Origin: a virus
Lineage: Duplodnaviria > Heunggongvirae > Uroviricota > Caudoviricetes
Direction: 5' to 3' (one strand)
DNA: 35,461 nt
Virus record (IMG/VR): IMGVR_UViG_2778261527_000008
Below the pieces are notes generated by a model that did no database searches, was not told the origin of the DNA, and saw only the letters and a list, made by a program, of their open reading frames with translations. Numbering within the stretch: position 1 is the stretch's first letter; the number at the start of each line of letters is the position of its first letter. Positions 12,517-34,023 of this stretch are shown here, in pieces. A program made the translations under genes and the position numbers.

Positions 12517-14523
12517 ATGCTTAAATTTCGCCGCGATCTTAACGGTTACGGTGGAGTTATTAATGAAGGGCATAACGATCAATACGAATTTGAAATTGCT
12601 TTCTCAAGTACACAGCCTTATCAGCGCCAATTTTGGGATGAGCAAAATCAAGAAATGGTGGTATTAGATGAAATTCTGGTACATACACCGGAAGCGGTTG
12701 ATCTGTCTCGTCTGAATAATAACGCTCCGTTGCTGTTCAATCACAATTTCGATAATCACATTGGTGTAGTTTGTAACGCTCGAATCGATGCGGATAACGT
12801 AGGTCGTGCTCTGGTTAAGTTCTCCAAGCATGGGACTTTGGCTAATGATATTCGTAATAAAGTCATTGAAGGTACGATGGAAAAAATTTCTGTCGGCTAT
12901 GACATTAAAGAATATCACATCGATTATGCCAAAGGACAATTGATTGTTACTAAGTGGGCACCCTATGAACTCTCATTTGTCACCGTTCCCGCAGACGATA
13001 CGGTCGGTTTAAATCGCTCTCTAAATACTATCACAGTTAATTTGGAGGCTAAACGCGATATGACTAAAGAACAAATTGAAGAAATCAAAGAAGAACAAGA
13101 ATCCGCTCAGGTTGAAGAAACTCCGGTAGAAGAAAATAAAGAATCGGAAGTAGAAGAAACTCAAGAGCGCCAAGTTGAAGAGAATAAAGAAGATGAAAAT
13201 CTCGAAGACGGAAAAGACGCTGAACATCCTGAAAGTGTTGATGATGATAGTTCAACTGTTCGGGAAACAGAAGAAGTAAAAGAAGAACGTGAAGCCGCTC
13301 CGGTTGAAGAAGAAAAAATCGAAGAAGTGGCTGAACGTTCCGAAGAAGACGAATTAGAAATTCGCGAAATTGCACGCGAACTAAATATTGATGACGAAGA
13401 ATTGAAACGCGCATTGGCAATTAAAGATATGACGCCGGAAGCATTCCGCACTAAGGCACTAAATAACATTACCAATGCTCAACGTATTAACGAACAACAA
13501 ATTAAGGACTCTAAAATGGAAAAAACTTTTGACCTGAACAACGTAATTCGCTCTCTGGTAGATGGTGAAGCTCTGGGTGCTAACGAAGCCGAGTTTTCTG
13601 CAATGGCTGCTACTACAACTATGCAGCGTGGTCGTGCCGCTCGTGGTGGCTCTGTATTCGTTCCGGCTGCTGCTATGCGTGCTGCTGCTGATGGCAACAC
13701 CAAAGCTAATCTGGTTGCTATCACTGACGAAAAACTGATGACTGAATCCTACATCGAAATGCTGATGCCTCAGAGTGTTTTAGGCCGCCTCGGGGTGACT
13801 GTTTATAGTGGCTTGACTTCTCCGACCGCTATTCCAAAAATGACTAAATCCAGCGTTGACGCTTTCGGATTCGTTGACGAAAATGGCGCTGCCCCCGAGT
13901 CACATGCGGAATTTTCGAACGTGAAACTGTCTCCGAAAACTTTTGCTGGTGGCAACCCGATCAGCCGTCAGTCGCTGAAAACCGTTCCGGGCATCGCTAC
14001 CCTGATCACCGATCACATTAACAAATCTGTTCGGATCAAACTGGAACAACTGATTCTGTCTGATAAAGAAAATGCTCGTGGTCCGGCTGGTCTGGTTAAG
14101 CAACTGGTAGACGCTAGCCGCGTTACCAAGAAAGCTGCTTTCTCTTATAAAGACTTCCTGAAAGAAATTGCAGCACTGACTGACGCTGGCGTTCCTGCTC
14201 AGGCGATCAAGTTTGCGATGAGCGGTGCAACTGCTGCTGAACTGGAATCTACCCTGAAAGATAACGGCGTTTCCGGTTATATCATCGAAAACGGCAAACT
14301 GGCTGGTTACGAAGTAGTTACTTCTGGCGTTATTCCGGCAGACCACATCGTTCTGGGTGACTTCTCCGGTATTACTATCGGTGAGTGGGGCGGTCTGGAA
14401 CTGGATATGGATCTAACTACATACCGTGATCGTGGTGCGGTAGTGCCTCGTATCTTTGTAGATTTGGACTACGTTGTAGCACAGCCGGAAGCTCTGAAAG
14501 TTCTTCACATCTCCGCTGAATGA
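12517..14523 (+). CDS. prohead protease (HK97 gp4/S78-like) - acidic scaffold-like linker - major capsid protein (HK97 fold) fusion
   Basis: N-terminal ~170 aa with protease-like SVGY/ELSFVTVPA motifs; ~110-aa Glu-rich linker; C-terminal ~340 aa capsid-like; single uninterrupted ORF. Confidence 0.7.
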   Translation: MLKFRRDLNGYGGVINEGHNDQYEFEIAFSSTQPYQRQFWDEQNQEMVVLDEILVHTPEAVDLSRLNNNAPLLFNHNFDNHIGVVCNARIDADNVGRALVKFSKHGTLANDIRNKVIEGTMEKISVGYDIKEYHIDYAKGQLIVTKWAPYELSFVTVPADDTVGLNRSLNTITVNLEAKRDMTKEQIEEIKEEQESAQVEETPVEENKESEVEETQERQVEENKEDENLEDGKDAEHPESVDDDSSTVRETEEVKEEREAAPVEEEKIEEVAERSEEDELEIREIARELNIDDEELKRALAIKDMTPEAFRTKALNNITNAQRINEQQIKDSKMEKTFDLNNVIRSLVDGEALGANEAEFSAMAATTTMQRGRAARGGSVFVPAAAMRAAADGNTKANLVAITDEKLMTESYIEMLMPQSVLGRLGVTVYSGLTSPTAIPKMTKSSVDAFGFVDENGAAPESHAEFSNVKLSPKTFAGGNPISRQSLKTVPGIATLITDHINKSVRIKLEQLILSDKENARGPAGLVKQLVDASRVTKKAAFSYKDFLKEIAALTDAGVPAQAIKFAMSGATAAELESTLKDNGVSGYIIENGKLAGYEVVTSGVIPADHIVLGDFSGITIGEWGGLELDMDLTTYRDRGAVVPRIFVDLDYVVAQPEALKVLHISAE

Positions 14524-14714: not shown

Positions 14715-15005
14715 ATGTTCAAATTATCAGAATCACAATTAAATCGAATGTTTAAAAGTGCTCCTGTATTTTCGGTGGAAGGTGGTAAATCAATTCGTGC
14801 TTATCATGAAATTACTACTACCGACGAATCGGGGGTAATGACAGAAACAGAATTTCTATTCTGTCGTGAGGGAGACTTAAAGCAAGGTGATATTGTCACA
14901 GTAGAAAACCAGCGTTTCAAAGTTCAATACGTTAAGCGCAATGGTGACAATACTTGTGATTGCTTTATCACTTTAGCAGGGGGTACACATGCTCGCTACC
15001 GTTAA
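14715..15005 (+). CDS. head-tail adaptor / head completion protein (candidate)
   Basis: 96-aa ORF directly after capsid gene, AGGGGG RBS; synteny only. Confidence 0.4.
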   Translation: MFKLSESQLNRMFKSAPVFSVEGGKSIRAYHEITTTDESGVMTETEFLFCREGDLKQGDIVTVENQRFKVQYVKRNGDNTCDCFITLAGGTHARYR

Positions 15006-15411
15006 TAATATGCCGAGACTGAAAATCAAACGCGCCTTGCAAGATATTATCGAACAAGATTTAGGTCTGGCTTTAAACGTAGAACAAACTCAGCAAGGCT
15101 TTAGTGATGACGTGGTTTGTTGGATTACTGGCATGAATGAGACTTACACAAGGGTCCGTGGCGGTAATGCAATGCAAGCTGAATGCGTTATCGAAATGCA
15201 GTTATATTCTCAGATTCATGAAACGAAAATTCATGAGGGTATTTGCCAGATAATCCAGATTCAGCCAGATAACCCACGATTTAAAGATTTGGGCTTCTCT
15301 ATTTCAGATATCACTCCAGTAGCTTCTAATACCGATTATGACGATGATTCTAGTGATGGGGGTATCGTTGGGACACTTAGCCTTAAATTTTCTTATCTAG
15401 CGCGTTTTTAA
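14989..15411 (+). CDS. head-tail joining or tail completion protein (candidate)
   Basis: 140-aa ORF overlapping previous stop by 17 nt; synteny only. Confidence 0.35.
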   Translation: MLATVNNMPRLKIKRALQDIIEQDLGLALNVEQTQQGFSDDVVCWITGMNETYTRVRGGNAMQAECVIEMQLYSQIHETKIHEGICQIIQIQPDNPRFKDLGFSISDITPVASNTDYDDDSSDGGIVGTLSLKFSYLARF

Positions 15412-15420
15412 GGGGTAATA

Positions 15421-16254
15421 ATGAATATTACACAAGATAACTTAGATATTTTTACGGGGTCGCATGTTGAAGTCTCCGTTTCTACTATGGTCGATAGCCA
15501 GCCGGACTTTTTCGATCCTAGTTTTAGTTCTATTGAGAACGTCGCAGCATTCCCTACGCTAACCGAATCCACAGAGATTGAAACTCTGGAAGAGTACGAT
15601 CAGGACGCTACGGGGAAACTTGCTGGTTATCGTAGACTGGAACCGACAACACTCACATTAAACCGTGTTCTTGACGATGAACATCAAGCAATGTTGATGA
15701 AAGCGGTAGGGGATAAAACACCTTTACGCTTCCGTATGTTCTATGTTGTGAACTCTGGCTATAGTGCTGCTAACACTGGTTACTATGTCATCTATGACGC
15801 TTATGTCACTAGTCACAAAACCCGTGGCGCAGATAACAAAGCTGTAACACTGGAATTTAAACTTGAACCAGATGGCGGGATTTTGGCAAGGGGGATTGCT
15901 ACCGAAGGCCGGATCTTACGTCAGGGTGATTTTGGTTTGGGTGCTGGTGTAAATCCATTCACGGGTCCGATTGACAGCGAGGCATTAGCCGGAAACCGTT
16001 TCGTAACTTACAAGGGAACTGCTAGCGGTAATCCATATTCAACCGACACAGCATTAATTCACCTTCAAGCTAATGAGCATGGCGCATGGCAATTAACCTG
16101 TAATACTTCTGGCGCACCACGTTTACGCGTCCGAAATATTCAGGAAAACGGTCGCTCTGAATGGATCAAGGTATATTCCACCAATGAGAAACCGACACCT
16201 AGCGAAATTGGCGCAGTAGCTAAAACTGATAGAGTCGATTTCGGGGAGTATTGA
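15421..16254 (+). CDS. putative tail-tube-fold protein with C-terminal fiber-like segment (candidate side-fiber anchor/collar)
   Basis: 277 aa; N-terminal half has tube-protein-like pattern; C-terminal KPTPSEIGA motif shared with the downstream fiber. Confidence 0.35.
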   Translation: MNITQDNLDIFTGSHVEVSVSTMVDSQPDFFDPSFSSIENVAAFPTLTESTEIETLEEYDQDATGKLAGYRRLEPTTLTLNRVLDDEHQAMLMKAVGDKTPLRFRMFYVVNSGYSAANTGYYVIYDAYVTSHKTRGADNKAVTLEFKLEPDGGILARGIATEGRILRQGDFGLGAGVNPFTGPIDSEALAGNRFVTYKGTASGNPYSTDTALIHLQANEHGAWQLTCNTSGAPRLRVRNIQENGRSEWIKVYSTNEKPTPSEIGAVAKTDRVDFGEY

Positions 16255-16331
16255 TTCACTTCCTAAATAAAACATGAACGTTGGGAGGTTAACGCCTCCC
16301 TTATTCCTGTTTTATAGTGAGGTGATTCTAG

Positions 16332-19300
16332 ATGCAATCAATCCAATTTAAACGCACACAGACGGCTGGTAAAAAGCCGACGCCGGAACAATTATCACAG
16401 GGTGAGATCGCCTTACAACTGGCGGACCATGTGATTTACACCAAAGACAAAAATAATAATGTAGTTCAAATTAGTGTTTCTCCAGAAAAACACGCTGAAC
16501 TGAATACGAAAGTAGACAATAACAAAACTAGCACTGACCGTGTTATTGCAGCAAATAAGAAAGAAGCTGCTGATAATCTGGCTAGTGCTAAAGCTGAACT
16601 TAATCAGACTATCACTTCTACCCGTGATACCCTCAATGCTTCAATCACTGCTGGCGATACCGCAGCCAACAAACGAATTGATGCTTTGACTACCACAGTA
16701 GGTAACAATAAAACCGAAGCGGCTAACGCTCTGGCGGCTGCTAAGACTGAACTGAATCAGACTATTACTTCAACCCGCGATACTATCAACGCGACAATTA
16801 ACAAGAACAAGACAGATATTAATGCGCGAGTTGATCAGACGAATACCAACGTTACCAACTTAACGAATACTGTCTCAGCAAATAAATCAGCAATAGAAAA
16901 GACGGTAGCGGATAATAAGAAAGATGCTGATTCTAAGATCACCAATCTTACTAGTACGGTCTCTGCGAATAAGACAGCCATTGAAAGAACTGTTGCAAAT
17001 AACAAGGCCAGTGCCGATGCCGCAATTGCCGCAGCTAACCAGCGAATTGATTCGATTGAAGGTAGTGCCGATGCTGCTTACATCAAGAAGAATACCAATA
17101 CTAAGCATGGTGGGTATCTGTTAAGCAAGACAGCTAACTATTTGGAAGACCAGACAGCGAGAGATCTTAACTACTTTGGTGCTTTCCGTACCAATGGTCA
17201 AGATGGACTCATGGATCTAACTCTTAACGTTCCTCACTCTTCCGGTAAAGCGCACGGTCGCGGATTTACTTTCCGTTATGCGTCTGGTGGATCTCGTGTT
17301 GAAACCTATGGTTTTGATAGAGAAGGACAGAAGAACTTTAGCTATAAGATGTATCACGAAGGTGATAAGCCGACTCCTGGCGAGATTGGTGCATACACCA
17401 AAGCCGAAGTTGATAAGATGTTTGTTAAAAACGTCGTTATGTCTGTTCCCAATTCTAGCGAAAACGTATCTGCATATTTCAAATTGGCAACCGCAACAAT
17501 TCCACAAAACGGGCGTAGTGTGTTTTTCCGTATTCATGGTGGTAATGGTTACAACGTTACGGCATATGACCAAGTTGATGTAGTAGAAATTCTTCTCCGT
17601 AGTGGTAACGATAGACCTAAAGGGCTTAACGTAGTTGCATATCGTCGAAATACCGTCAAAGATTTTGATGTATTTGCCGTCAATACATCCGGTGATAACT
17701 ATGACATTTATGTGAAATATCAGCGTTACACTGATAACGTTATTGTTGAATTTGGTAAAAGTGTTTATGTTAATCTGACTGTTCACGATACACCGGAAGC
17801 CACGTTAATTAAACCTTCTGTTGGTGTTATTGGTGGGCGCATCATTACTCTATTCAATACAGAAAATAAGCGTGGTGTGTTGAGTTTTGACGATAACACA
17901 CAAAATAGTTATGATATTGTTCACTTGAGTAATGATAGAGGTACTGGACGAAAATATATTCGTAAATTCCGTAGCAACTATAACGAAATGATCTGGCATG
18001 AGACTGTTCAAGGTTCCAGTTATCGTCTGGCTACTGGTAGCACTGATGCTCAGGAAATTATGACTATTGAATCTAGTAGCTCAATTGCTGGAACTCATAA
18101 AGGTAATATTATTTCTGGTCGTATGCTTTTAAATGGCGGTTCTAATGCTATTACACTGCGCCGACCTGCTGGTCAATCTAATCACATTGCGTTTCAAGAT
18201 AACCGGACTGGAGATATTACGCGTCAAGGTTGGATCGGTTATGCCAATGCTGATACTAACGTTTTTGAATGGTATAGCGATGTAGGTGGTACTTCTATTC
18301 GTCACCACATCGACGGACAGATCGAACTTGCAACTGGTAGAACAAAACGAGTTTATACTAACGCTCAATTCATCTCAATGAATAGCGACGCCTACCGCAT
18401 GATCTACGGTAATTATGGTGCATTCTGGCGTAATGATGGTGATAAAGTTTATCTTCTTTCTACTGCCGAAAATGATAAATTGGGCGGGTGGAATGGAAAC
18501 AGACCGTTCATTTACGATTTGACTAACGGTAAAGTTACTTTAGGCGGTGATGGTAACGAAGGTGCATTAATTCTTGAAAGAGATAGCCGTGCTGCTCGCT
18601 TTAGTAATAACGTATTCTTAGAAAAAGGATTGCTTACTTTCTCTGCGGGTGGGAATCAGTCGATGGATTCTTTCACGATTAACCATTGGGGGAATAGTAA
18701 TGCCAATCGATATAACGTTTTGCAATTCCAGGACACTAGCGGGACTCACTTTACCACTGAACGTAACGGATCTGGTGGTTTGCTTGCTCATTTCCGAGGG
18801 GATTTAACTACCGAAGGAAAATTAACGTGGGGTAAGGGTACAGCTACTTCTAGTTTCAATATTCGTGCTTGGGGTAATAGTGATTCCCGTAAACAGGTTT
18901 TCGAGTGTGTAGATGAAAGTGGTTGGCATTGGTATACCCAACGTCCGGGCGGTCCGGGTACTACGGCAATTGAGTTTGCCATCAACGGTACTGTTAAGCC
19001 TCAAGCAATTCACACTGGCGGTAATATCACGCTTAACGGTGCTGATATTGAATTTCGTCGCACTGGTAATAAGCATATCTGGTTTAGAGATCCAACTGGA
19101 TTAGAACTAGGTTTGATGTATTCCGATGATGCTGGTGTTATTCGCTTCCGTGGTCAGAAACAAGCCCAGACGTGGAAACTTGCGGATAAGATGATTCATC
19201 TTGAATCTGGTAGCGTCGGCGGATCTGATAAAGGTTTGATTCGTGGTAACGTTTCTGGTGGTAGCTGGTCTAGTTGGCGCGATCGTGCATCCGGCTTGCA

Positions 19301-32280: not shown

Positions 32281-33960
32281 TTAAATTCCAAATTCTTGTA
32301 ATGGACCTGGTATTTCTTCTTCTGGTTTCCAGTTCTTATCTGTCAGCATGTCTAAACATGGATGCAGAACAAGCCCGTTACTCTCCAGAATCTGCCTATC
32401 ATTGATAGTCTTCAAATCAACGAAGATCCGGCCTTTCCTCGGTCCTCTTGAATTTTCTATTACAACTCTCTGGGTCTTGCCATCGATGTATTCCAGTACA
32501 AACAAGTTTTTGTACTTGTCAATCCTGCTACACCCGATCCGTTTTAGAGCTTGCTTAATCTTAAACCGGACCTTAATGCGATCCTCGTTGTAAACATCTT
32601 CTAAATCAAATTCTGCGAGCTTCTCCCAGCCTTGAGAGTCAACAGAATACATTTCCTCTTCTGCCATCTTAAGTTGATTGTAGAGTGTTTCACGCTCGCT
32701 ATTGAGGGTAGTAATCTGATCGGCTAGCTCCTTCGTTGCTCCTGTCATAGCAGAAAGGGTAATCAGGTTATCAATCTTGCGTGATATTTCATCAATCTGT
32801 ACTTTCAAAGCCGGAACCGGATTAGCCTTATCTTCAGCAATCCAGATTTTATCAGCCAGCAATTGCAATACAGCTTTCTCTAATTGGTCGCCGCGAAAAC
32901 TCCAGTTTGTATGCACACATTCAATACGACTAGAGCGCATTGCATCGCATGAATAACGATATTGGTTAGGCCGTCTGTTTGTTCCTTTCACCTTAACCAT
33001 AGCGGAACCGCAATGTTCACATTTCAATAGACCAACACCACTAAGCAAGGGAATAGGTTTAGCTTCTTCTTTGTCTCCAAAGTTACATGCTCTAACACCA
33101 ATGCTTTTCTTAAGGTGATAAAACTCAGCGTCATCTAGCACACGAGGATAATAATCCTTTAACTCATACTTAACGCCATCTACAGAGATTTCCTTGATAC
33201 CAATCAAAGCGCGGGTATGGAACAACCTTTCAATCATTGCCCGTGACCAGTTTGAATGCCTCTTGTGACTTGCGGCTGGTGGTGGTGTGTATGTCGCGTT
33301 AAGGTGATCCAGTATCTCGGCGGTTGACCGTCCATTCCTGCGTAATTCCACAACTTCCTGAACAATAGGGAAGAAGACCGGATGAGGAAGCACATAACCA
33401 GATGTGGTATCAGTCCACCACATATTCTTTCCAATTTCCTCGATTGCAACAGCCGGATTTTGTGGATTTTCTTGATGAGCTTTAATCTTAATCAGTGCGC
33501 TTGAGTTAGTACGATTGCGCTTAGTCTGGCTTTCCTCATTACCACGGATGAATAAAAGGATGGAGAACATCAGGTCCATCGGGTTAGCGGTAACAGTATC
33601 AAGCGAGTAGATCTTGTTATCCATGCCAGTAACAATGGTTATCCCCCTACGGATGATTGAAAGGAATAACTCCTGCGCACTGACAATATCGGCACGGGAT
33701 AAACGGTCCAAGTTTTCGATGAATAGCCAGCTACCAACAGGAACGGATCTACCTATTGCATCAAGGAAACGAGATAGCGCCCCTGTTTTGGAGTTAGCAC
33801 CCTTAAACGCAGATACACCCAGATCCTGATAATCATTTACCAGTTCAAGGTCATACTTTACCGCAATCTCTCTAGCCATCCTGATTTGTCGTTCATAACT
33901 CGAACCATCATTCTGACGCATAGACGAGAAGCGAATATACGAATACAGTTTAGTTTTCAT
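32281..33960 (-). CDS. large serine recombinase (integrase/resolvase family)
   Basis: 559 aa from ATG at 33960; N-terminal resolvase catalytic motif YIRFSS..Q; Cys-rich zinc ribbon CEHCG...C..C; coiled-coil segment. Confidence 0.8.
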   Translation of the reverse strand: MKTKLYSYIRFSSMRQNDGSSYERQIRMAREIAVKYDLELVNDYQDLGVSAFKGANSKTGALSRFLDAIGRSVPVGSWLFIENLDRLSRADIVSAQELFLSIIRRGITIVTGMDNKIYSLDTVTANPMDLMFSILLFIRGNEESQTKRNRTNSSALIKIKAHQENPQNPAVAIEEIGKNMWWTDTTSGYVLPHPVFFPIVQEVVELRRNGRSTAEILDHLNATYTPPPAASHKRHSNWSRAMIERLFHTRALIGIKEISVDGVKYELKDYYPRVLDDAEFYHLKKSIGVRACNFGDKEEAKPIPLLSGVGLLKCEHCGSAMVKVKGTNRRPNQYRYSCDAMRSSRIECVHTNWSFRGDQLEKAVLQLLADKIWIAEDKANPVPALKVQIDEISRKIDNLITLSAMTGATKELADQITTLNSERETLYNQLKMAEEEMYSVDSQGWEKLAEFDLEDVYNEDRIKVRFKIKQALKRIGCSRIDKYKNLFVLEYIDGKTQRVVIENSRGPRKGRIFVDLKTINDRQILESNGLVLHPCLDMLTDKNWKPEEEIPGPLQEFGI

Positions 33961-34023
33961 ACCATTTCCAAACAAAAACGCCCCTACCGCGTATTATAAC
34001 GATAGGGGCCAGGTGATTAAAGA

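Follow-up and report, generated by a model that had tools for sequence, protein, structure and literature searches.

In T-even long tail fibers, the gp36 trimer attaches to the N-terminal region of gp37 (PMC3004832). Side fibers of siphophages and tailocins are anchored in other ways, among them the N-terminal immunoglobulin (Ig)-like ring of Ur-lambda Stf, the collar and L-shaped fiber of T5, the distal tail protein of monocin, and the OB domain of F-pyocin (PMC13455828). Here, we analyzed a 35,461-nucleotide (nt) stretch of viral DNA (Caudoviricetes; IMG/VR record IMGVR_UViG_2778261527_000008), referred to as the window, in which a KPTP.EIGA motif recurs in a 277-amino-acid (aa) protein and in the 1176-aa fiber encoded by the adjacent gene. 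The motif itself is ordinary; what is new is the arrangement of known parts that it reveals. The 277-aa protein, which we call the anchor, is probably the proximal piece of the fiber, with a head of the tail-tube fold and a gp36-type end that docks on the gp37-type start of the fiber, while the motif acts as punctuation. The evidence consists of homologies to T-even fiber proteins, the fold of the head, an invariable pairing of end types in adjacent genes, and versions of the fiber that are naturally split or fused.

The two ends that would form the joint resemble those of gp36 and gp37. BLASTP analysis aligned anchor residues 180 to 277 with residues 396 to 496 of RB49 gp36 (30% identity over 105 aa; E 2e-5), flush to both C termini, and fiber residues 1 to 66 with residues 4 to 69 of RB49 gp37 (E 7e-14). 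The anchor ends in the gp36-type tail DRVDFGEY (window positions 16228 to 16251, + strand), hereafter the plug; RB49 gp36 ends in AVIDFGTF, and T4 gp36 ends in SVQDFGYY. The pattern in the anchor family is a C-terminal [IV]DFGE[YF], and D273, F274, and G275 are invariant in 52 homologs. The matching socket is the gp37-type N-terminal attachment domain, fiber residues 1 to 50 (16332 to 16481, + strand), with the pattern IQFKR..G.KP..GE[IL]A, in which F6, R8, G13, P16, G24, E25, and D32 do not vary in any of the 9 lineages compared, T4 among them.

Plug and socket are found together wherever related loci could be analyzed. At 44 of 44 such loci, a protein ending in [IV]D[FL]G plus two residues is encoded directly before a gene whose product starts with M..I[QK]FKR..G.[KR]P..GE[ILV]. 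Because most of the 44 loci belong to closely related Escherichia coli prophages, independent support is drawn not from their number but from the nine divergent lineages in which the pairing is kept, among them T4, RB49, Klebsiella, and Serratia. The Klebsiella anchor has a tube-like head and a T4-gp36-like body ending in IDFGTF. In a Proteus prophage (L008), three genes stand in series, encoding an anchor that ends in IDFGEF, a 198-aa protein with an IQFKR start, a coiled coil, and an MDFGTF end, and a 675-aa protein with another IQFKR start. This is the fiber of the window split at the junction of coiled coil and shaft, with the joint used twice in series. Conversely, in contig L058 the head and a complete fiber form a single 1057-aa chain in the same gene slot, with the tube gene directly after it. 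Together, the pairing at all 44 loci and in nine lineages, the split Proteus case, and the fused L058 case show that anchor and fiber are parts of one structure.

A variant of the joint was observed in Serratia (L059, 9684 to 9950, with P0096), where the anchor ends in TFDEGTF and the next fiber starts with LQLFRT..G.QP..EGQLAVNL. Both sides depart from the usual IDFG and GELA forms, and the two may have covaried. Among the usual forms, tails of the DFGE[YF] type go together with VVQISVSPE on the fiber side, and DFGTF goes together with INLS.

The remainder of the anchor divides into a head, a linker, and one small module. Residues 1 to 162 (15421 to 15906, + strand) form a head with the tail-tube fold, 29% identical to and a paralog of the 157-aa lambda-like tube protein encoded downstream (19919 to 20392, + strand). 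The head is followed by a Gly-rich linker (residues 163 to 208; 15907 to 16044, + strand) that is predicted to be flexible, with pLDDT (predicted local distance difference test) scores below 50 for residues 164 to 208; G163, G172, G174, G176, G182, G191, N192, and R193 are invariant in the 52 homologs. Residues 209 to 255 (16045 to 16185, + strand) make up the last bead, a small beta module homologous to the last module of RB49 gp36, with four predicted strands (pLDDT 55 to 69) and invariant W223, Q224, R236, R238, W248, and K250. The module-end motif EKPTPSEIGAV follows (16186 to 16218, + strand); in it P258 is invariant, and E256, T259, A265, and V266 are nearly so.

Against curated tube families, the anchor had no Pfam match at E <= 1 and matched phrog_158, "major tail protein," with E 3.9e-8. 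The 157-aa protein matched Pfam Phage_TTP_11 exactly at the curated cutoff (28.4 bits) and phrog_158 with E 1.9e-21, and it is presumed to be the major tube protein. Its gene is the last tube-fold gene before the chaperone and tape-measure genes, with a gp38 gene in between; thus, the 157-aa paralog and not the 277-aa protein is nearest the chaperone genes, which is the position of a tube-protein gene. The anchor is not the tail terminator either, as a separate terminator gene (140 aa; 14989 to 15411, + strand) is present directly upstream. Because terminator and tube protein are separately encoded, the head is inferred to be a dedicated attachment domain. Comparison of the whole anchor with PDB sequences gave no match at E <= 10. 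In the PDB, chain B of entry 9occ is named "putative neck whiskers protein gp24" of phage Sf11, a misleading name, since its paper identifies gp24 as the tail tube protein.

Relatives of the anchor are widespread. A search with the C-terminal 87 aa retrieved one candidate homolog; an anchor-family profile, searched against 1.84 billion representatives, retrieved 275 clusters (made at 50% identity) of the head family at E <= 1e-3 and 143 at E <= 1e-10. The majority of the listed matches are proteins of 400 to 1500 aa whose first ~245 residues match the head, the linker, and the first module. Few members carry a name, either "tail fiber protein" or "hypothetical." A related anchor of 698 aa, also tube headed, was noted in a record deposited as "Escherichia phage DCP80" (L005; PQ671644.1, 1 to 18560). 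This 141-kb record, classified as a T-even Gaprivervirus, opens with a siphovirus-type module of lambda-type terminase, portal, anchor, fiber, tube protein, chaperones, and tape measure, and it has the look of a chimera in which a lytic phage was assembled together with a prophage or second phage.

These relatives bear on a different interpretation, that the 277-aa protein is a major or alternative tube subunit with a decorative C-terminal domain that its likeness to fiber proteins means nothing in particular, and that the fiber is attached elsewhere, for example to the distal tail protein. The tube fold and the 29% identity to the tube protein would fit such a role. Tube proteins with C-terminal decoration domains are common, as in lambda gpV, and the 251-aa tube protein of the related locus L001 has an extra C-terminal domain. 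However, the second tube gene fits the lambda-type tube families better and lies upstream of the chaperone genes with only gp38 between. Relatives of the 277-aa protein run on as complete fibers of 400 to 1500 aa, some with an S74 end, which is implausible for a subunit present ~200 times. Moreover, the C-terminal tail of the anchor remains gp36-like up to the stop codon, and a gp37-type domain invariably opens the gene that follows. We consider a decorated tube subunit very unlikely.

The architecture that we favor is a side fiber made from T-even long-tail-fiber parts and mounted on a siphovirus tail. The fiber itself would comprise a gp37-type N-terminal domain, a coiled-coil spacer, an RB49-like shaft, and an S74 domain, and the anchor would contribute the tube-fold head, a flexible Gly-rich linker, and one bead ending in KPTPSEIGA and the VDFGEY tail. 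By analogy with T4 gp36 and gp37, the gp36-type C terminus, presumably as a set of three in a trimer, would dock noncovalently on the trimeric gp37-type N-terminal domain. The tube-fold head would attach the fiber assembly to the siphovirus tail, and it may form a ring of six, or part of one, beside the tube or the terminator. The mismatch between a trimeric fiber and a 6-fold tail could be accommodated by two trimers, and hence two fibers, per ring of six. Alternatively, three trimers could give two chains each, for three fibers; such an arrangement, with three trimers contributing two chains each, has been described for the F-pyocin OB ring (PMC13455828).

Several observations weigh against this architecture. 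The homology of the anchor to gp36 is confined to the last module and is modest, comprising one pairwise alignment (E 2e-5), the tail pattern, and synteny. The Pfam family of T4 gp36, PF03903 (Phage_T4_gp36), matched neither the 277-aa protein at E <= 1 nor its C-terminal 117 aa at E <= 10; this family covers residues 56 to 195 of T4 gp36 and not the tail. In the AlphaFold2 monomer, the C-terminal module of the anchor reached only the pLDDT range given above. The gp36-gp37 junction could not be read from structure, as a search of the PDB with T4 gp36 gave no match and the PDB copy searched contains no gp36 chain. With the socket profile, the PDB search yielded no solved relative; its only matches were spurious ones to repeats of designed beta-propellers and to a collagen IV fusion. 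Finally, plug and socket may be adjacent partly because the whole module was inherited from a common ancestor, rather than through functional constraint.

The motif was what first drew attention to the two genes. The initial annotation placed one copy near the C terminus of the 277-aa protein, one at the fiber N terminus, and one ~350 residues into the fiber, and all three strings were confirmed at these places on the + strand. Site 1, KPTPSEIGA (16189 to 16215), comprises residues 257 to 265 of the anchor (gene, 15421 to 16254) and is part of NEKPTPSEIGAVAKTD (residues 255 to 270), in the last module just ahead of the conserved tail. Site 2, KPTP (16374 to 16385), comprises residues 15 to 18 of the fiber (gene, 16332 to 19862) and is part of KKPTPEQLSQGEIALQ (residues 14 to 29), within the socket. 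Site 3, KPTPGEIGA (17367 to 17393), comprises fiber residues 346 to 354 and is part of GDKPTPGEIGAYTKAEVD (residues 344 to 361), within the gp37-homologous shaft; with KPTP at residue 346, its distance from the fiber start had been given correctly.

The recurrence exceeds what composition predicts. For the composition of the two proteins, 0.0042 occurrences of KPTP would be expected in 1453 aa versus the 3 found (Poisson probability of at least three, 1.2e-8). None of 5000 shuffles had at least two, and three of the four occurrences in a six-frame translation of the whole window are these sites. Sites 1 and 3 are also embedded in longer similarity, spanning 42 residues around them (anchor residues 230 to 270 versus fiber residues 318 to 359; 36% identity; E 4e-4), and 22 of 27 nt are identical in their KPTPxEIGA codons. 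Chance recurrence of a short low-information peptide is therefore extremely improbable, even though only 4 to 9 residues are common and the N-terminal site has only 4: the P value of ~1e-8, the flanking similarity, and the conservation across 52 homologs all speak against it. For sites 1 and 3, composition statistics, flanking similarity, and conservation led us to reject chance outright; for the site 2 tetrapeptide, coincidence is possible.

Site 2 does not belong with the other two. Profile-profile comparison of the internal motif with the fiber N-terminal domain gave a probability of 8% over 14 columns, and KPTP is conserved in gp37-type N-terminal domains only within an enterobacterial subgroup. 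Elsewhere the aligned residues are RRPDA in RB49, TRPAA in T4, RKPTG in an environmental group, and YIPKA in DCP80. Treating all three sites as one motif was ruled out on these two grounds. Sites 1 and 3 are one module-end element, and site 2 has only the tetrapeptide in common with them. We treat this tetrapeptide match as a probable lineage-specific coincidence inside G-x-(K/R)-P, a loop conserved in the gp37-type domain; a deeper structural kinship with the module-end motif is possible.

The element represented by sites 1 and 3 is typical of T4-type fiber proteins. It consists of a hydrophobic strand, (W/F)..(V/I)(Y/F), followed after 3 to 4 residues by (K/R/P)-P-(T/S/Q)-(P/A)-x-(D/E)-(I/V/L)-G-A, located where the chain leaves a globular beta module; this pattern is matched by sites 1 and 3 and not by site 2. 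No curated family for it was found. RB49 gp36 has the element four times, including at its end (YQLYHEGNKPTPADVGAV), and site 1 is the same element as YHEGNKPTPADVGAV of that protein. The place in RB49 gp37 homologous to site 3 reads KMYHEGDKPTPSELNVY, and the C-terminal region of RB49 gp34 carries WGEIYTKQNKPTAQEIGAV. In T4, the element is found in gp34 (FVQVFDGGNPPQPSDIGAL) and gp36 (IYSEYNKPQAAD). The T4 gp34 copy, NPPQPSDIGA, comprises residues 1241 to 1250 in full-length numbering. In the crystal structure (PMC5537660), a P5 beta-prism (residues 1146 to 1238) is followed by a short beta-helical cap, which places the motif directly after the prism and at the entry to the cap. From this position at the P5/cap boundary, the element can be described as the strand that closes a globular beta module, together with a Pro-rich exit. 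A profile built from 17 motif instances matched T4 gp34 residues 1218 to 1261 in the PDB, a circular result since T4 is in the profile, and also matched an independent solved fiber, 9f4a (residues 1217 to 1241; E 0.0018); besides this profile match, T4 gp34 is the only solved-structure context for the motif.

Repetition within single chains is characteristic of the element. The anchor-family profile search included long fibers with 4 to 7 separate matches to the last module of the anchor, and the three inspected contain many copies of (V/I)YHxG.KPTAADVGA..GG.(L/V)TG. Among 148 listed matches, there were 149 relaxed motif instances, with up to 9 per chain, versus 0 in shuffled versions. In related anchors, the number of modules is 1, 3, or 4, and the motif closes each of them. 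KPTPxEIGA is thus a structural punctuation mark of T-even-type fibers and an ordinary feature of them. It recurs in the window because both proteins are built of the same type of bead, not because the copies bind each other.

The initial annotation had suggested instead that the motif is a common docking element, in which the copy in the anchor would bind the copy or copies in the fiber. Sites 1 and 2 do lie in the two modules most likely to meet, and both anchor P258 and fiber P16 are invariant. However, the element occurs up to 9 times within single chains, far from their termini, and in T4 gp34 it marks an internal domain boundary, which argues against KPTPxEIGA as the contact itself. T4 gp36 joins gp37 without a KPTP motif beside its DFGYY tail, lineages that retain the joint have replaced the N-terminal KPTP with the four alternatives listed above, and site 3 lies 346 residues into the fiber, past a coiled coil of ~200 residues. 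Direct docking of motif on motif is accordingly quite unlikely. What survives of the suggestion is that the recurrence is beyond chance and marks two adjacent proteins of one fiber that most likely dock on each other, although not by a single motif. In terms of residue patterns, the best candidates for the contact are the C-terminal [IV]DFGE[YF] tail and the IQFKR..GE[IL]A domain rather than KPTPxEIGA.

The second suggestion, domain shuffling between the two genes, holds loosely: the motif marks module boundaries, and anchors differ in their number of modules. A stronger form of it would make the motif chiefly a recombination linker for swapping fiber modules, with no particular structural role. 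The placement of the motif at the end of each module in related anchors, the 22 of 27 nt common to the two sites, and the clearly mosaic fiber, with an RB49-like shaft on a different N-terminal part, are all in line with this. Nevertheless, the junction with RB49-like gp37 falls near residue 262, not at the motif but 84 residues upstream of it, and 27 nt with 5 mismatches is very short for homologous exchange. In addition, the amino acid pattern is kept among proteins with unrelated DNA (T4, RB49, Aeromonas, and metagenomes), which argues for selection on structure. A role chiefly in recombination is therefore unlikely; the two roles are not exclusive, and a linker function is compatible with punctuation as a secondary effect.

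Downstream of the socket, the fiber continues with a coiled-coil spacer, residues ~51 to 255 (16482 to 17096, + strand), in which residues 36 to 245 gave weak Filament and Apolipoprotein Pfam matches below the cutoff. The spacer contains an internal duplication (16554 to 16645 and 16707 to 16798; 92 nt, 76% identity, spacing of 153 nt) that was seen by direct-repeat search; Tandem Repeats Finder reported nothing in the coiled-coil part. In close relatives, the length of the fiber ranges from 1121 to 1207 aa. Residues 262 to 1062 (17115 to 19517, + strand) form a shaft homologous to gp37 of Krischvirus (RB49/Phi1), with 75 to 87% nucleotide identity. The shaft region matched phrog_1699, gp37 of the RB49/T2 type (E 6.5e-144; residues 262 to 1174), and contains a Gp34_trimer Pfam domain (residues 627 to 728); the shaft also matched T4 gp34 in the PDB (E 3e-16). 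A Peptidase_S74 intramolecular chaperone domain follows (19518 to 19694, + strand; PF13884, E 7.3e-14, residues 1063 to 1121).

The gene neighborhood is that of a siphovirus. The late operon encodes a lambda-type terminase, portal, protease-capsid fusion, 96-aa FII-like protein, the anchor, and the fiber, and after the fiber, the 157-aa tube protein, a gp38-type adhesin, a chaperone pair, tape measure, distal tail protein, and tip protein. The fusion (668 aa; 12517 to 14523) has a prohead-protease-like part at its N terminus, which a long, acidic linker of low complexity connects to an HK97-type capsid protein; its relatives likewise have Peptidase_S78 and Phage_capsid within one gene. On the - strand, positions 32281 to 33975 encode a large serine recombinase with Resolvase, Recombinase, and Zn_ribbon_recom domains. 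Given this recombinase and related viral contigs of ~35 kb, the window of approximately 35 kb is a siphovirus-type temperate prophage of E. coli and essentially a whole temperate phage. It was found in 53 of 5426 complete E. coli genomes (~1%), NZ_AP027850 and NZ_CP024141 among them, where the 277-aa protein is labeled "hypothetical," and no close relative was found among isolated phages.

The gp38-type adhesin, a 168-aa protein for the tip of a gp37-type fiber (20561 to 21067, + strand), matched Gp38_N (E 3.5e-15) and phrog_1121, tail fiber adhesin (E 1.2e-32). Its gene is cut off from the gp37-type fiber gene by the tube gene (19919 to 21067). In environmental and Klebsiella relatives (L049 to L053 and L057), a gp38-like gene is found directly after the fiber gene and before the tube gene. 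Where no gp38 follows the fiber, as in a Salmonella locus (L006, 11088 to 12033) and E. coli variants (L032 to L047), one to three paralogous proteins of ~100 aa are encoded between the fiber and tube genes. These contain GWFDIPNGW and end in FKFRRM plus further residues; no family assignment was found, and they are probably alternative adhesins or fiber chaperones. Elsewhere in the window, a 256-aa open reading frame (ORF) on the - strand (575 to 1345) has a weak Pfam match to LprI, a lysozyme inhibitor. Over about 410 bp (DNA match, 932 to 1351), it is 95 to 97% identical to a gene that is labeled "hypothetical protein" in RB49-like Krischvirus phages; this is a second exchange, and a very recent one, with the group of phages from which the fiber shaft came.

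These findings may extend beyond one prophage. An undescribed broad class of siphovirus side fibers could be attached by a tail-tube-fold domain whose coding sequence stands between the terminator and tube genes and which is either fused to the whole fiber or connected through a portable plug and socket of gp36 C-terminal and gp37 N-terminal type; we advance this tentatively, at somewhat less than even odds. A literature search found no description of a tube-fold fiber head, of this joint outside T-even phages, or of a named motif of this kind, although the library searched was incomplete and these negatives are weak evidence. If such a class exists, a paralog of the tube protein would serve as the dock for fibers on a noncontractile tail, a candidate new mount that would be a fifth mode of attachment beside the Ig ring, the collar, the distal tail protein, and the central fiber. 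The joint would be common to T-even myoviruses and, as in Proteus, usable serially, making it a natural transplantable connector for fiber engineering: a short C-terminal DFG.[YF] presented to an IQFKR..GELAINL domain could join chimeric fibers. It would also provide an annotation rule for the family of 143 clusters, whose checked members mostly lack a name. A siphovirus-type prophage with receptor-binding parts of the RB49 type (gp37 shaft and gp38 adhesin) is present in about 1% of complete E. coli genomes. Many other enterobacterial prophages have the same anchor-and-fiber module with other fiber bodies, and in all of these the fiber would be held by a protein that the Prokaryotic Genome Annotation Pipeline (PGAP) calls "hypothetical."

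The closest known counterpart is the gp36-gp37 junction of T4 and RB49, in which the upstream protein likewise ends in [IV].DFG.[YF] and the fiber likewise starts with IQFKR..G.(K/R)P..GE(L/I)A(I/L)N..D..TKD. The order of connector gene and fiber gene, the RB49-type shaft, the S74 domain, and the gp38 adhesin also match the distal half-fiber of these phages. Unlike in T4 and RB49, the N-terminal portion of the connector in the window is a tail-tube fold and not the gp35-binding part of gp36, a coiled coil of ~200 residues follows the N-terminal domain of the fiber, and the tail genes are of the siphovirus type. No gp34 or gp35 homologs were seen among the scanned ORFs of the window, and with siphovirus-type tail genes the context is not that of a T-even contractile-tail fiber. 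The C-terminal region of T4 gp34 (PDB 4UXE, 5NXF, and 5NXH) has the same module-end element, WSSFVQVFDGGNPPQPSDIGALPSDNATMGNL (1230 to 1261), at the P5/cap boundary. T4 gp34, however, runs on into a cap that meets gp35 and gp36, whereas the anchor ends 11 residues past the motif in its DFGEY tail, and sequence identity outside the motif is low.

Among siphoviruses, lambda gpV, with its Ig-like domain, and SPP1 gp17.1* also combine a tube fold, a linker, and an outward-facing extra domain. Those proteins are a bulk tube subunit or a frameshift variant with a decoration, whereas here the tube protein is separate and the extension is a fiber module with a joint. As in the T5-like phage DT57C, whose fibers are built from two polypeptides, LtfA and LtfB (PMC4728585), a lateral fiber would be assembled noncovalently from more than one gene product; that system appears to use another joint and other proteins. 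Finally, like the side fibers of Ur-lambda, T5, monocin, and F-pyocin, the fiber described here would be a trimer mounted on a 6-fold tail through a dedicated N-terminal or adaptor domain. The anchors described for those systems are domains of the Ig-like, galectin-like, or OB kind located at the tip of the tail; in contrast, the candidate anchor in the window is a tube-fold domain encoded between the terminator and tube genes.

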